64,000 nucleotides of DNA from assembly GCA_001899395.1 (NCBI GenBank), contig MOYD01000024.1, forward strand, positions 436-64,435. The letters run 5' to 3'. Below the pieces are notes generated by a model that saw only the letters and a list, made by a program, of their open reading frames with translations, searched no databases and was not told the origin of the DNA. The position numbers and the translations under genes are program-made. Below are positions 1 through 64,000 of this stretch, piece by piece. This stretch comes from Candidatus Gastranaerophilales bacterium Zag_111 (GTDB lineage: Bacteria > Cyanobacteriota > Vampirovibrionia > Gastranaerophilales > Gastranaerophilaceae). Within the stretch, counting starts at the first letter, position 1. Every line of letters starts with the position of its first letter.

Positions 1-1004
1 CTTGTAAAGAACAAGGCATTCCTGTAGGTGCTTACTGGTATTCCTATGCAACAAACGCAACAGATGCTCGTGCAGAAGCAAGAGTTTGTGCTTCTGTCAT
101 CAAAGACAAGAGCTTTGAATACCCTATCTTCTTGGACTACGAAGAAGAGGGTTCGTCTGCGACAGCCAAAGAAGTGATTCCAGCATTCTTAGAAACACTA
201 GAAAAAGAAGGATATTATGTCGGTTTATATAGTTCTAAATCTTGGTTGACAAGCGGCATTATTCCATCTAGTGTTATTTCAACTTATGACATATGGGTAG
301 CACACTGGACAAGCTCAACATCATATAGCGGCTACACTATTTGGCAGAACTCTAGTACTGGTACTATTAGCGGCATTAGTGGCAATGTAGATACAAACGT
401 TTGTGTTGTAGATTATCCAACTATTATTGCAAAAGCTGGTAAAAACAACTTAAGTTCTACTACTACAACTACAACTGATACAACCACTAATACAACTACT
501 AATACAAACACCAATACAAATACCAACACAACTACTACAACCACAACTTATACTGCTGGTACAAAGATTACATTAAAGAATGCAAAGCTCTATGCATCTG
601 CAACTGCTTCTAGTTCTTCAAGTAAGAAAACAGGAACATTTTACATCTATAGCTCAGATGTAACAAACAATAGAATTCGTATTACCAATTCTAAGTCTAA
701 TGTTGGTAAGACTCCTGCTGGCACATATGTAACAGGTTGGATTGATGTATCTTCAATTGGTTCTACATCAACTACCACAACTACATCTTTTGCCGCAGGA
801 GATAAAGTAACATTAAAGTCAACTAAACTTTATACTTCTGCTTCGGCGGCCACAGCAAAAGTTTATAAGACTGGAACTTACTATATCTATAGTTCTACTA
901 TTACAAATAATAGAATTAGAATTACCAATTCTAAATCAAATGTTGGTAAGACGCCTGCTGGCACGTATGTTAGCGGATGGGTCAACGTATCTGATATTTC
1001 TTAA
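1..1004 (+). CDS. Endolysin: GH25-type muramidase domain, Thr/Asn-rich linker, two SH3b-like cell-wall-binding repeats (5' end outside window)
   Basis: Frame open from nt 3. GYYVGLYSSKSW, DIWVAHW and ISGNVDTNV resemble GH25 lysozymes. T/N linker at about 460-545. Two ~65-aa repeats (GTFYIYSS..NNRIRITNSKSNVGKTPAGTYV). TAA stop. Confidence 0.8.
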   Translation, partial: CKEQGIPVGAYWYSYATNATDARAEARVCASVIKDKSFEYPIFLDYEEEGSSATAKEVIPAFLETLEKEGYYVGLYSSKSWLTSGIIPSSVISTYDIWVAHWTSSTSYSGYTIWQNSSTGTISGISGNVDTNVCVVDYPTIIAKAGKNNLSSTTTTTTDTTTNTTTNTNTNTNTNTTTTTTTYTAGTKITLKNAKLYASATASSSSSKKTGTFYIYSSDVTNNRIRITNSKSNVGKTPAGTYVTGWIDVSSIGSTSTTTTTSFAAGDKVTLKSTKLYTSASAATAKVYKTGTYYIYSSTITNNRIRITNSKSNVGKTPAGTYVSGWVNVSDIS

Positions 1005-1020
1005 ACGCTGGTGACAATCA

Positions 1021-1338
1021 GTGGAAAAAGAAAAAAAGTTTAAGAAAAAATGGGAGACTTCCAAAATTTTACTTTTTATTAATGTTATAGTAGCAATTAT
1101 TATAACATTCTTTTCCATGTACTGTTGCATTACACTTGAAACAGCAGAACCTCTATACTATACAGTACCTTCTGTATTTGTAGAGGTTGCAAGCGCAACA
1201 GGATTTTACTATTGGAAAGCAAAGAACGAGAATAAAGTAAAAATGGTTCTTTCCTCTGTTGAGGAAATGACAAAGATGGAAGGTCTTACTGAAGAAGAAA
1301 CACGAGTATTAGAAGTTCTTATTGGAACGCTAGACTAA
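1021..1338 (+). CDS. Holin-like small membrane protein
   Basis: 105-aa ORF directly after the endolysin, GTG start, two hydrophobic helices (ILLFINVIVAIIITFF; VFVEVASATGFYYW). Function inferred from position only. Confidence 0.45.
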   Translation: MEKEKKFKKKWETSKILLFINVIVAIIITFFSMYCCITLETAEPLYYTVPSVFVEVASATGFYYWKAKNENKVKMVLSSVEEMTKMEGLTEEETRVLEVLIGTLD

Positions 1339-1350
1339 GAGGTGGTAGAA

Positions 1351-59976: not shown

Positions 59977-59989
59977 AAGAGGTGATTAA

Positions 59990-62173
59990 ATGAACATTTT
60001 CAATCAATACGGTATAAAGGAAGTCGCAGATGTTACTTTCTATTCAATTACCAGAGTTGGAGATGAAGAATTTTATACACCTGTTTTATTTTTTGATACA
60101 TTGAAGGTTTCCACTGTTAAAAAGACAGTGAAGACAGTCAATGCTACAGGAGGAAAAGGAAACGGTAAAGTTATATCGTGGAACTTCGGTAAAGAGATTA
60201 CTTTATCTTTAGAAGATGCTTTATTTTCAGATGCATCGTTAGATATGTTCTTAAATGGACGAATATAGACAAAATTAGCTGATTGGACTTCTGTAATTGC
60301 AAAGCTTAATACAGCAAACAAATATGGTAGATTACACTATTCAACTAAAGCTTATCCTTCGCCGCAATTGACAATGAGTGAATGGGAGATCGTTTTTAGA
60401 TGCGCAGAGAAAGCTGGTTATAGTGCAAAGTATGGAGACGCAGGATTGACTTTAGACGCCAGTGATAATAAAGAATATTCATATAGATATTAGTATGATA
60501 CCATTCGTGGTGATAAAGAAGGCGATTAGTTTGTCGCTGAGAATAGAAAATATCTGACACAAAAATATATGAATAGAAATCAATTGTCGCCGCAATCAAG
60601 AAATGTTGCATATTTTTATGATATAAACGATGGATATTCTGGTGTTGACATAAGAATTGTTGATGAGAAAGTTGATACAGATTTTACTGAAAGTGTTGAG
60701 ACTGGAGGAACAAAAATCTATATAGAATCGTCAAATTCTTGGTACACAGAGGAGGCTGCGGCTGAATATATAAAAGCAAGAATTGATAATGCCGCAACTA
60801 ATAATACCGTTGAAACATTAGTACTGAAAAAGAATATTTACGTACGTTATGTTTAGAATGGAAGTATTTGCTACAGAACAGGAACAATAACTGCTTGGAT
60901 TAGTATAACAGCGCAAGGTTTTTACTGCCGAGCAACTTATTTAGAATTTTCTAATTCAACTGATGTTTTGAATAATCCTTACTGCGGCCGTGACACGTTT
61001 AATGACCATATATTCTACTATTTATTCCCAAACTATTTAGGAACTATAATAGATTTGTGCTATTGCGACTTGCAAGATAAATTCTATCTTGCTATGCCGC
61101 CGATAGTAATAAATGAAATTGTTAAAGAGATTGATTCAGTTCATAAGATTGGAAAAATTGAAAACGATCTCTATGACAGTTAGTATATAGATAGATTTGA
61201 AAAGTGCGTTGTTACAAATAGAGATGGATTTACAATTGATGCTGGATAGCAAAGAGAAAATCTAGTAAAGTATTATAATAATGTTACAGATGAGAGCTAT
61301 ACAATTTATTATGATGCTAAGACAATGTTGCCTTTGTTTACTGGTGAGAATTTTAATATTGAACCTTATACAAAGCAATATATTAAAAATACTGAATCAA
61401 TTGAAATTACTGATTCAACTGTTTTATTGAGTATTTCCAAGTCAATTGAAGAAAAAAGTGCTTGCTACTATGATTTTCCATATCAAGTTGCTTATCAAAT
61501 AGCATTAGTTGGTATTGATTTGATTAGTCTAATAGGCAATTCAATTGCTGATTGGGTGGCGGCGCAAGTTGAAGATTTTGATCATTTGGAAGATATAATC
61601 TTTATTGGTGGTCTAGATGAAAATGGATTGCCAGTAGGAATTACTGTTGAAACAGATGGATATACAATTACGAAAATTACTTTTGACACTAATTCATTAT
61701 TAATCAAATATGTTCAAAAGAATCCAAATCTATTTAAAATTAAACGCAATACAATTTATTATAAATGGACACGTACTGTAGATGAAGCTGGTAGTATTTT
61801 TACAACAATTGGTACGGATTTAATAATCAGCGCAGATACGTTTCCAAGTGAATATAGAATTGTTGGAGAGACTTATATAAGAGAGCAAAAAACGGGAAAA
61901 GATTAGCGATGTCAAATCGTATTTCCTCGAGCAAAAATTTCTCCAGCAACAGATATTAAATTACAAGCTGACGGTGACCCCGTTACTTTTTCAATAGATG
62001 TAAATATCTTAATGCCGAAAGATAAAGTAATGATGGAATTAAGATAGTTCGATGTAGAAGAGGATAAGAGAGAGGGCGGCTTTAGAATTATACCTCAAGA
62101 TAAACGATACTCTTATACTCCTACAAATCAGGAATACGTTGATACTGTTATTGATAACAACGAGATTTATTAA
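59990..62173 (+). CDS. Structural paralog 4 (727 aa), 8 in-frame TAG
   Basis: Same-frame pieces 59990, 60569, 60968 and 61325 joined by TAG only. Conserved termini. Confidence 0.7.
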
Positions 62174-62186
62174 GGAGGTGAAAGAG

Positions 62187-64000
62187 TTGAATTTATTTGA
62201 AAAATATGGTATTAAGGAAGTTGCTGATGTTGTGTTCTATTCAATGAATTAGGTTGGCGATGATGAGATTGTTTATACTCCTGTTCTTTACTTAGATACA
62301 TTAAAAGTTTCCATTTATGAAAAAACTGCTGAGAGTGTTTTTGCTACTGGTGGTTTAAAGAATAAGAATTTGATTAAGTGGAATTTTGGAAAATCAGTTC
62401 AATTGACATTAGAAGATGCGTTGTTCTCGCCAGCGTCTATGAGTATGATATGGGGCGGCAAGTTAGATAGTACTTTTAGTGATGCAACTTCTTTAGTAGC
62501 AAAAATTAATTATGCAAATGTATATGGTAGATTGAGGTATTCTACTAAAGCTTATCCTTCGCCGCAATTAACTAATGATGAATGGAATATTGTATTTAAA
62601 ATTATTCAAAATAAGCTTGAAGGAACTACTTTGGATATTTTAGATAATGATGTTGCTAATACATTAGATGATGATTTGAAAACTGCTTTTATTAATAGAT
62701 ATTATGATAGACCTGTTCTATTTGATGGTGTCAATGATGTTGGCAGTGATACTGGGAAAAATGACTTATCTCAACCTTGGACTTATACCTACGACTTAGA
62801 GAATTTTGGTACTTACTTTGGCGCCAATTACTTAAGTGTTTCACAATTGAATTTAGAAGGGTATGAGAATATAAATGATCATTATGACGATAATGGCGTG
62901 CTTAAAGTTGGACATTATCGGTGGTATTCAGCTAAAGCAATGCCTGAGTATGTTATTTATATTATTAGAAATTCACTGAAAGAATTGAGTGATATTGGTA
63001 ATATAAAAACTAATATTGGTGAAGTTGAAGTTGTAGATAGAATGGAAAAGTGTTTGGTAACTAAGAGAGATGGATTTAAAATTAGTACTAAAGAACAGCT
63101 TGATAATCTATTTAGATATTATGCGGATGATAGAAGTGAAACTTATAGTATTTATTATGATGCTAAAACTATGTTACCACTGCTTCATATTGAGGATGAT
63201 GAAATTTAGGGATATAATTTAGAGAAGTTTTGGGAAACATCAACTTTGGTAAGTGAAAATAGGTATGATTATGGTAATTATTAGGAACTAGACGTTTATA
63301 GTTCTTATTCAAAATTATACTAGTACTTATTATATTTAATTTCAACATGGGATTCATCATCTCTTGGAGATAGTTCTTCAAAGGGTTATACAGTAACATT
63401 TTCTTTAGATAATGTTTATACTTATACTTTAGCATCTGCTTCGAGTGGAATTAATATTTCGTAGAATTCTATTTTGGATTATGAAGTTTTATATGAGATA
63501 TTAGCTTCAATAGCAACAAATCGTGTTTTAACAAAAGAGCCAGATTATTATTTGCCACGTAGTGTCAGCTTGCTTTTGAATTATAGTACTGAAAATGGAT
63601 GGTCAGCATTTGTTAGAGCAATTGGTTTACGAGAAAACGATTTTTCTTGGATGAATGATATTTTCAAAATCAAATTCGGTACTGTCTATTACAAATGGAC
63701 ACGAACTGTAAAGTATCAAGAATACGAAGATGATGCGGTTCTTGGTTCTTGCTTTACAATTGATGCGGATACATTCCCAGATGATTATAAAATAGTTGGA
63801 GAAACCTACATACGAAATCAAAAAACAGGTAAAGACCAGCGATATCAAATCACAATTTTTAAAGCAAATGTATCATCAGATACTTCAATAACTTTATAGG
63901 CAGACGGAGATCCAACGACATTCTCTATGACAATAGATGTGTTGGTTCCAGAGAATGACATAATGATGGAGATGATTCAACTAGACACAGAAGAAGATCG
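62187..64000 (+). CDS. Structural paralog 5 (3' end outside window), 6 in-frame TAG so far
   Basis: TTG start after GGAGGTG. LNLFEKYGIKEVADV..GETYIRNQKTGKDQRYQ..ITL(TAG)ADGDPTTF. Confidence 0.65.

Follow-up and report, generated by a model that had tools for sequence, protein, structure and literature searches.

A short G/C palindrome, GCSGC, is strongly over-represented across a clade of large gut and rumen phages

The 64,000-bp stretch of DNA analysed here, which we call the window (positions 436 to 64,435 of contig MOYD01000024.1, from assembly GCA_001899395.1 of Candidatus Gastranaerophilales bacterium Zag_111), belongs to a phage genome in which the degenerate palindrome GCSGC (where S is G or C) occurs about ten times more often than expected. 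The bias acts on duplex DNA and is a trait of a whole clade of large phages from gut and rumen, and its closest known counterpart is the set of highly iterated palindromes (HIPs) of cyanobacteria. Sites decay at a normal rate and are created too frequently, and we tentatively favour a methylation-linked, gain-biased process as the source of their accumulation.

Results

The GCGGC and GCCGC totals given for the window, whose GC content is 34.7%, are exact top-strand counts. GCGGC occurs 122 times and GCCGC 73 times, and the resulting 195 GCSGC sites (one per 328 bp, or 3047 per Mb) compare with expectations of 19.0 under independent and identically distributed (i.i.d.) bases, 23.3 under a first-order Markov (dinucleotide) model and 33.4 under a second-order (trinucleotide) model. 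At 10.3-fold, GCSGC ranks first in over-representation among the 512 reverse-complement pentamer pairs. A third-order Markov model predicts 149 sites, which places the signal already at the level of the tetramers GCGG, CGGC and GGCG. A preliminary description of this DNA, made by eye, had estimated a roughly ten-fold excess from about 44 sites in 1–12 kb and about 64 in 38–64 kb, and the exact figures for these intervals, 48 and 65, lie close to its tallies; the modest top-strand surplus of GCGGC that it noticed is also real, the ratio of GCGGC to GCCGC being 1.67 when the skew of G over C predicts 1.39. Its assignment of the word to the Fnu4HI-type specificity GCNGC requires correction: because GCWGC (where W is A or T) is not enriched, with 55 copies versus 61 under the first-order model (0.9-fold), the relevant specificity is GCSGC, that of the CglI/NgoAVII type (PMC4267653).

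The excess withstands null models that preserve coding content. Within the coding sequences of 72 crudely called genes there are 109 GCSGC sites, versus 31.1±4.5 after synonymous shuffling within genes (with a maximum of 46 in 300 shuffles) and 18.8±4.2 under codon permutation. DNA without open reading frames (ORFs), defined as having no open frame of at least 40 codons on either strand, amounts to 3,021 bp and holds 12 sites where 0.6 are expected, an enrichment of about 20-fold. All three codon phases are occupied, phase 2 being rarer (32/32/5 for GCGGC and 21/12/7 for GCCGC), and sites also occur in RNA genes and introns: one in tRNA-Asn, two in the transfer-messenger RNA (tmRNA) and one in a group I intron.

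The effect of the word on codon choice is pronounced. The first codon of an Ala-Ala pair is GCS in 53 of 79 cases (67%), compared with 111 of 744 (15%) other Ala codons (odds ratio, OR, 11.6; p = 3e-22), Gly following an NGC codon is encoded by GGC in 32 of 46 cases versus 135 of 656 elsewhere (OR 8.8), and codons for Cys, Ser, Gly and Arg that precede GGC or CGC shift toward their -GC forms; Ala-Ala and X-Gly contexts make up the majority of coding sites. On the sense strand, the fold excess over synonymous shuffling is nearly the same for GCGGC (3.4) and GCCGC (3.7), as it is for GGCGGCG (8.5) and CGCCGCC (9.0), and the fold enrichment of GCGGC and GCCGC is equal within every genome module of the window. 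Equal enrichment of both orientations argues against a signal that operates on mRNA or is oriented by strand. The GCSGC signal acts on duplex DNA, with synonymous choice bent to make the word. The preliminary description had read the pattern in this way, as a DNA-level and not a codon effect, citing sites in every frame, in intergenic DNA, in introns and in RNA genes, and had named Markov and codon-shuffled nulls as the means of refuting it; exact placement agrees with the former, the attempted refutation failed, and its reading is supported by the synonymous shuffle, the codon contexts, the strand symmetry and the excess in ORF-free DNA.

Across the window, the placement of sites is Poisson-like (index of dispersion, 0.87–0.94), with no short-range periodicity, and no regular spacing was found when it was looked for. 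GCCGC is followed within 100 nt by GCGGC 20 times versus about 12 expected, and because this excess of complementary partners is modest, hairpin stems can explain at most about 20 sites; we rejected an origin in hairpin stems on this ground.

To place the window among its relatives, we used three syntenic relatives from IMG/VR (22 shared genes, 50–76% amino-acid identity) and 40 loci from metagenomic assemblies of human gut and rumen, the majority on contigs of 90–180 kb; the clade DNA sampled comes to 0.80 Mb, at about 20 kb per genome. GCSGC is the top pentamer in 32 of the 35 clade loci of at least 5 kb (median enrichment, 6.6-fold; range, 1.8–13.7). Its density is about 1.1–2.7 per kb in most of these loci, is uncorrelated with their GC content (r = −0.09) and, over the 0.80 Mb of clade DNA, amounts to 1976 per Mb; counting the further relatives below, most loci have 1.1–3.4 per kb, and density is near 2–3 per kb irrespective of GC content or avoidance profile. 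In six further relatives (loci L229–L234), sampled in their non-structural regions around the BrxL-like gene and with a GC content of 29–32%, GCSGC reaches 15–23-fold (2.3–3.4 per kb), with GGCC, CGCG and GCGC nearly eliminated alongside it. Restriction-avoidance profiles vary widely within the clade, and some members show no avoidance of CCGG, GGCC or CGCG, yet the GCSGC excess is constant; an excess that persists without palindrome avoidance is not a by-product of excluding other G/C palindromes. One member, L207 (ERZ808278 NODE-62, a 92.9-kb contig), has lost the enrichment, with GCSGC at 1.8-fold and rank 33 and with all four G/C tetramer palindromes avoided, and is a natural control for identifying a driver gene. 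The GCSGC bias is a trait of this whole clade of large gut and rumen phages.

Outside the clade, the GCSGC ratio ranges from 0 to about 5 in some 160 unrelated viral loci, and is 1.4–2.9 in four candidate-host loci, in which GCAGC comes out on top. The distant relatives Lactococcus phage 949 and Bacillus phage Izhevsk contain no GCSGC, and two or no GCWGC, in 50 kb each, an avoidance of GCNGC that accords with the earlier remark that phages normally deplete such sites.

The relatives also define the core of the motif. In the window, the 195 sites fall in 177 separate G/C islands, and among islands flanked by A/T, GCSGC is found 49 times versus 8.1 expected and GGCGG alone is depleted (3 versus 9). 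The A/T-flanked forms GGCGGC, GCGGCG and GGCGGCG are enriched 16-, 16- and 91-fold, and CGSCG only 2.3-fold. The window avoids CCGG, CGCG and GGCC (observed/expected ratios of 0.11, 0.22 and 0.31), and a C flanking GCGGC on either side would make CGCG or GGCC; because CGCG and GGCC are avoided, extension of the core to (GGC)n or GGCGGCG is secondary. Relatives that avoid CGCG and GGCC show the same exclusion of C and excess of G at the flanks, and relatives that do not avoid them have GCSGC at about ten-fold with unbiased flanks (position −1: A27 C29 G18 T38; position +5: A31 C29 G26 T26). A model in which (GGC)n islands are merely the only ones ‘allowed’ fails on these non-avoiding relatives and on the island statistics, since among the ‘allowed’ G/C pentamers occurring as isolated islands GCSGC is 10–16 times commoner than GGCGG or GGCGC. 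The conserved core reduces to GCSGC, a degenerate palindrome whose neighbours are at most slightly biased toward G/C. Together with the null models, these comparisons show that the excess does not depend on codon usage or amino-acid content, on di- or trinucleotide composition, on hairpin pairing or on excluding other G/C palindromes.

In lineages whose proteins are 55–64% identical to those of the window, 6 of 28 and 8 of 25 window sites recur at homologous codons, when fewer than 0.1 would be expected if the sites were independent. Conserved Ala-Ala pairs retain GCS-GCN in 5 of 7 cases, three of them with a central C<->G flip, and the Ala-Ala site listed in Table 1 is an instance in which S is retained across lineages while the central base changes; conserved Gly-Gly pairs retain GGC-GGC in 6 of 12. 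Retention at this level is roughly that given by equilibrium codon-context frequencies alone (67–70%).

Raw column variability was uninformative as a measure of constraint, and we used polarised, codon-aware counts instead, in which singleton substitutions were polarised on unrooted trees of three groups of close relatives (91–97% nucleotide identity). Synonymous third-position W>S transitions that create a site occur in 20 of 72 opportunities, versus 737 of 9044 for other W>S transitions (OR 4.3; p = 9e-7) and 47 of 457 for those completing any other G/C run of at least 5 (OR 3.4; p = 2e-4). In contrast, S>W transitions that destroy a site are no rarer than others (27 of 107 versus 503 of 2085; OR 1.06), when mutation–selection balance at this level of enrichment predicts that losses be slowed to about 0.26–0.34 of neutral, a range outside of which the observed value falls. 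Gains (20) and losses (27) are roughly balanced, and new sites arise at all five motif positions. The clade is in a steady state of normal decay and of creation that is about 3.4 times too frequent. Sequences one substitution away from the motif are not depleted (GTGGC 1.26, GCGGT 1.15, ACGGC 1.34 and GCGAC 1.03 times expectation); Vsr-like repair was rejected on the grounds that no T:G-derived neighbour is depleted and that sites are gained at every motif position.

The density of sites along the window, together with the positions of individual sites, repeat copies and methyltransferase genes, is given in Table 1. The GCSGC-free gap overlaps a divergent cluster of sigma-A-type promoters, a putative immediate-early region; the protein encoded at 30422–31141, used as a query for the early regions of relatives, returned 0 hits.

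Table 1. Coordinates of GCSGC domains, individual sites, 14-mer copies and selected genes in the window
Feature	Position	Strand	Remarks
Iterated-palindrome domain	1..64000	.	195 GCSGC sites
Small genes	1-28 kb		4.1 sites/kb, 12-15x expectation
Interval	28-38.9 kb		1.7 sites/kb, about 7-8x expectation
Interval	38.9-42.6 kb		3.8 sites/kb, about 13-15x expectation
Structural module	42.6-64 kb		2.2 sites/kb, 6.8x expectation
Only large GCSGC-free stretch	33490..38120	.	4.6 kb, ~14 sites expected at mean density
Divergent cluster of 12 perfect TTGACA-N16/17-TATAAT promoters	29324..36098	.	lowest GCSGC density
Ala-Ala site	43679..43683	+	GCC-GCC; GCG-GCA in L001, GCC-GCA in L003
Gly-Gly(-Gly) site	47652..47659	+	GGC-GGC-GGC; GGC-GGC retained in L001 and L003
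Non-coding site	32845..32852	-	GGCGGCG within the 17-nt spacer of perfect promoter TTGACAACGGCGGCGAAATGTGATATAAT
14-mer TGGCGGCGAAGCAA	25701..25714	+	5' untranslated region, directly upstream of Shine-Dalgarno sequence plus ATG
14-mer TGGCGGCGAAGCAA, further perfect copies	13989-14002(-), 14996-15009, 28016-28029, 39700-39713, 39979-39992
N6-adenine methyltransferase (Eco57I/N6_Mtase type)	10722..12032	+	adenine enzyme, cannot act on an all-G/C word
Second DNA methyltransferase (PHROG 799)	17184..17798	+
Compact C5-cytosine DNA methyltransferase	22447..23376	+	309 amino acids; sole candidate ‘writer’ in window
Phage-borne tmRNA	10217-10537

A subset of the sites belongs to a repeat. The 14-mer TGGCGGCGAAGCAA has 6 perfect copies and 21 at no more than two mismatches, versus 0.18 expected, on both strands, and several copies lie in 5' untranslated regions just before a Shine-Dalgarno sequence. 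This family accounts for about 20 GCSGC sites, and outside it the sites share no flanking sequence. Clade relatives lack the 14-mer yet keep the GCSGC bias, and an exact scan of IMG/VR gave chance single hits only. As a dispersed-repeat or regulatory family it was rejected as the source of GCSGC, because there is no shared extended consensus and TGGCGGCGAAGCAA forms only a lineage-specific subset. We also rejected a role in gene starts (M-A-A-K-Q), most ORFs that follow it being only 5–25 codons long, and a role as a promoter, there being no conserved upstream element and the genome having two sigma-A-type promoter classes instead. The 14-mer may serve as a translational operator or in RNA processing.

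Other features of the window

The two classes of sigma-A-type promoters occupy separate regions, 2144–28170 (on the + strand) and 29324–38054. Promoters of class one share a conserved unit of about 40 nt (TTGACTTTTATAAAAATTTATGATATAATATATATAGA), of which about 12 copies precede small + strand genes, and those of class two are the twelve perfect promoters of the divergent cluster.

Other words also deviate from expectation. The palindrome CAATTG occurs 93 times versus 21 under i.i.d. bases (4.4-fold; Markov-4 expectation 50.5, z = 6), with 8 copies in 36–38 kb, and its excess is far above that in clade relatives (median 1.7-fold). Further avoided palindromes in the window are ACATGT (0 versus 21 expected), CATG (0.37), TCGA (0.43) and GATC (0.49), and the non-palindrome GAGGC/GCCTC stands at 0.26. 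GCGC is not avoided in the window (1.08) and is near-absent in several relatives. An 8-mer, CCAGCTCC/GGAGCTGG, has 13 of its 14 window copies in two clusters, 27560–27786 and 28982–29189, which make up a short array of repeats on either side of the gene at 28128–28616, where ORFs are few.

A search among GenBank phages found no close relative. Large Bacillota siphoviruses, among them Lactococcus phage 949 and the Bacillus Tsamsa/Izhevsk group, have distantly related structural proteins, and the endolysin has weak hits in rumen and gut metagenome-assembled genomes (MAGs) of Finegoldia, Lachnospiraceae, Ruminococcus and Solobacterium, which lack the GCSGC bias. Six tRNA genes, a tmRNA and two group I introns lie in the window, along with the three methyltransferases that the preliminary description had recognised (Eco57I-like N6, PHROG 799 and C5). 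Its further genes encode a BrxL-like ATPase, an RNA ligase resembling T4 Rnl1, a DUF2828/VWA protein, a dCMP-deaminase-like protein, two small GIY-YIG nucleases and TnpB-like remnants. There was no clear signal of stop-codon reassignment, considered as a cause of the low ORF density, and the standard code is retained.

Some of these genes deserve comment. The BrxL-like Lon-type ATPase (23834–25264), a component of bacteriophage exclusion (BREX) systems, is 62–64% identical to its counterparts in L229–L234 and may act as a decoy against defence systems or may have been co-opted. The dCMP/cytidine-deaminase-like protein (14066–14539), with about 46% identity in L230, L232 and L233, may serve only nucleotide metabolism, though a part in base modification is conceivable. 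A set of genes reminiscent of RNA repair (2526–3998, 5965–7011, 9384–10638 and 21437–21761) comprises the DUF2828/DUF7788/VWA (TROVE-like) protein, the T4 Rnl1-like ligase, the six tRNAs, including tRNA-Ile(UAU), and the tmRNA. The TnpB/Cas12f-like (IS605 OrfB) remnants at 12029–12433 and 12642–13145, in which the helix-turn-helix part and the C-terminal TNB domain lie in separate ORFs, are probably a decayed insertion sequence element. The group I introns (54720–54995 and 55052–55343) are adjacent and lie within a large structural gene (52726–57189), whose exon ORFs at 52726–54747, 55371–55565 and 55657–57189 have the same order in L001–L003. Paralogous structural proteins (54349, 55942, 58120 and 62454) share the motif LEDALFSPAS...WGG, in which Trp-Gly-Gly is always encoded by TGG-GGC-GGC.

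Discussion

In the literature collection searched, we found no report of GCGGC, of over-represented palindromes or of HIP-type words in phage genomes. The closest known phenomenon is that of cyanobacterial HIPs, of which HIP1 (GCGATCGC) is an example and of which GCsGC in Cyanothece PCC 7822 shows the strongest over-representation of a palindromic 5-mer in any cyanobacterial genome (Elhai 2015; PMC4390886). HIP densities are roughly 1000–2000 copies per Mb, and all genomes with HIPs encode a methyltransferase predicted to be cognate (PMC4390886). To account for their accumulation, a ratchet has been proposed in which methylation at a new site turns mismatch repair toward keeping the mutation, saturating at about one site per kb, and the over-representation itself ‘may be an epiphenomenon’ (PMC4390886).

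The phage word resembles HIPs in several respects. It is the same word as in Cyanothece PCC 7822, a short palindrome composed entirely of G+C, and it is an extreme outlier, ranking 1 of 512 in the window and topping the pentamers in 32 of 35 loci. Its density is of the same order (about 1000–2500 copies per Mb in cyanobacteria, HIPs being recognised at about 500–2500, with the clade DNA at 1976 and the window, at 3047, slightly above the published range), its copies are dispersed through coding and non-coding DNA, and they are made by substitutions, there being no longer consensus and both synonymous gains and losses being observed. The word matches the specificity of 5-methylcytosine (m5C) methyltransferases, of which M.CglI and M.NgoAVII are established examples specific for GCSGC (PMC4267653), and the combination of faster creation with normal decay, though confounded by possible recombination and unrooted polarisation, is compatible with the proposed ratchet. 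The differences are that these are viruses of, probably, gut and rumen Bacillota, with 29–39% GC, and not a cyanobacterial chromosome; that the phage trait is stable throughout a clade, whereas cyanobacterial GCsGC is sporadic, being present in one strain and not in its sister; and that a cognate methyltransferase exists in every HIP genome, whereas the C5 enzyme of the phage is only a candidate. Mismatch repair directed by GmC is hypothetical even in cyanobacteria.

We view it as possible, and hold tentatively, that GCSGC accumulates through a HIP-type, methylation-linked and gain-biased process driven by a conserved factor that recognises the duplex word. Such a factor would bias which substitutions survive, so that GCSGC would be written by single-base changes wherever coding allows, as well as in non-coding DNA, and would be held at about 2–4 copies per kb. 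A GCSGC-specific m5C methyltransferase, encoded by the phage or by its host, would mark a newly arisen site on the daughter strand, the mark would cause mismatch correction to fix the new site instead of reverting it, and the ratchet would saturate at a set density, in which case the over-representation need not be functional. The ‘positive function’ suggested in the preliminary description is not demonstrated by our results, in that decay at the ordinary rate is no worse a fit to a gain-biased process than to selection.

A number of observations weigh against methylation-linked accumulation. No methyltransferase could be assigned GCSGC specificity, and homologues of the three window methyltransferases were not found in the 0.80 Mb of clade DNA, which samples about 20 kb per genome. 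The closest homologues of the C5 enzyme (52–64% identity) lie on contigs where GCSGC is at 0.2–1.4-fold; the possibility that the bias travels with this enzyme was rejected, and the suggestion that the word is the target of a phage methyltransferase is weakened accordingly. In Bacillota, mismatch correction is not known to be methyl-directed. Varied restriction-avoidance profiles imply varied hosts, and a motif that stays constant across them argues against a strain-variable host methyltransferase. On its own, a ratchet linked to replication fails to account for the 4.6 kb of early region that lack sites. Lastly, the flux cannot separate biased repair from selection if divergence stems mostly from recombinational imports within the clade: the polarisation is unrooted, and imports would make the fluxes mirror the clade-wide equilibrium. 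Strictly isolated substitutions keep the trend on tiny numbers (2 of 18 versus 73 of 2108).

If GCSGC were instead a selected recognition site, a phage protein conserved in the clade would read the duplex word genome-wide, and selection would keep its density high; the reader might be a self-marking or hypermodification enzyme, a protein that tells phage DNA from that of the host, or a factor in condensation or packaging. We consider this explanation somewhat unlikely. It would account for the constancy of the motif while clade hosts and avoidance profiles differ, for a density that is roughly constant whatever the GC content, for a palindromic core that suits a dimeric reader, and for the sharing of 6 of 28 and 8 of 25 sites at homologous codons, with central C<->G flips. 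Creation is raised about as a selection model predicts (roughly 2.2–2.6 times), and enrichment is absent from the early region driven by host RNA polymerase, as if the function were limited to the remaining genome. However, selection should retard losses, and the OR of 1.06 in place of the expected 0.26–0.34 shows no such retardation; positional sharing is no higher than the equilibrium codon context would produce (67% for Ala-Ala), spacing is Poisson-like and without regularity, the roughly 40 window proteins scanned include no mismatch glycosylase or other candidate reader, and L207 is a clade member without the enrichment. More doubtful still is the more specific proposal that positive selection has made GCSGC a ‘self’ mark throughout the genomes of a previously unrecognised clade of large phages, and that a phage protein conserved in the clade reads or modifies it, for example to direct site-specific hypermodification or to tell phage from host DNA; if true, this would be the first virus to cultivate a restriction-type palindrome instead of purging it.

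The remaining explanations locate the source of the bias in the host, in its nucleases or in sequence composition. Phage oligonucleotide usage commonly tracks that of the host, and it is conceivable, if quite improbable, that GCSGC is also iterated in the genomes of the hosts (probably Clostridia of gut or rumen), through a conserved methyltransferase or repair system, and that the phages, replicating under this regime, drift likewise. A Ruminococcus MAG locus with GCSGC at 2.9-fold, some unrelated low-GC viral contigs with GCSGC as their top pentamer (3–5-fold), and the fact that HIPs are a cellular trait in cyanobacteria (PMC4390886) are all in keeping with such an imprint; yet the four candidate-host loci reach only 1.4–2.9-fold with GCAGC on top, the 15–23-fold of some phages is far above any bacterial locus seen, and the varied avoidance profiles imply diverse hosts. 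Chi sites are asymmetric words read on one strand, such as AGCGG in B. subtilis and GAAGCGG in S. aureus. That GCSGC is a Chi-like signal, modulating the host AddAB/RexAB nuclease and so shielding linear phage DNA at both ends, would fit a short GC-rich word with a GCGG core, a density of one per 300–500 bp, which is plausible for a 5-mer Chi, and the usefulness of both orientations to a phage with two exposed ends. We regard it as very unlikely, and the preliminary description's suggestion to this effect as disfavoured, because the core is a degenerate palindrome with both central bases equally enriched, the flanks are uninformative in non-avoiding relatives, polarity of orientation is absent from every module, and losses are not slowed. 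As for a passive by-product, whether of codon or dipeptide usage, of (GGC)n islands left by exclusion, of hairpin stems, of Vsr-type repair or of dispersed-repeat copies, it finds some encouragement in the prevalence of Ala-Ala and X-Gly contexts among coding sites, in the strong avoidance of CCGG, CGCG and GGCC, in the modest excess of GCCGC followed by GCGGC (20 versus about 12), and in the 20 or so sites supplied by the TGGCGGCGAAGCAA family. It is effectively excluded as a sufficient explanation, since the excess survives codon-preserving nulls and is about 20-fold in ORF-free DNA, relatives without palindrome avoidance are still enriched about ten-fold, isolated islands of GCSGC outnumber those of GGCGG or GGCGC 10–16-fold, hairpin pairs account for no more than about 20 sites, transition neighbours show no depletion (1.0–1.3-fold) and gains occur at all five positions, unlike what Vsr would produce, and TGGCGGCGAAGCAA is absent from relatives that keep the bias.

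Other known systems share some of these properties. As in cases of restriction-site avoidance by phages, GCSGC is a real restriction-modification (R-M) specificity, the window avoids other palindromes, and distant relatives purge GCNGC; the sign, however, is reversed, at 7–20-fold enrichment, and only the S-centred half of GCNGC is involved, such that in place of an Fnu4HI-type avoidance one finds GCSGC at ten-fold and GCWGC at 0.9-fold. In the excess of CCWGG that Vsr drives in E. coli, a palindrome that is a methylation target likewise becomes commoner through correction biased toward the site, but the phage effect is far larger and lacks the Vsr footprint, in that T-containing neighbours are not depleted and gains, instead of being confined to the methylated C, occur at five positions; among about 40 window proteins scanned there was no Vsr-like protein. 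Chi, KOPS (FtsK orienting polar sequences) and DNA uptake sequences are also short GC-rich words of high and fairly even density in coding and non-coding DNA, but they are asymmetric and biased in orientation, whereas GCSGC is palindromic and symmetric between strands. The CglI and NgoAVII (and TauI) R-M systems have the identical recognition sequence, and stand-alone m5C methyltransferases that read it exist (PMC4267653), but these systems are cellular defences and not drivers of site accumulation, and no homologue of them was identified in the phage DNA.

Phage genomics leads one to expect that short palindromes are purged, and this clade of abundant gut and rumen phages accumulates one word of the R-M type while purging other palindromes. 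Its behaviour extends the HIP phenomenon from cyanobacterial chromosomes to viruses, and phage genomes, being small, fast-evolving and heavily sampled, make it testable whether HIPs are functional words or the footprint of methylation-biased repair. GCSGC also provides a strong compositional marker for membership in the clade, and its abundance predicts that clade DNA would behave unusually toward TauI, Fnu4HI and BisI-type enzymes and toward m5C-dependent defences.

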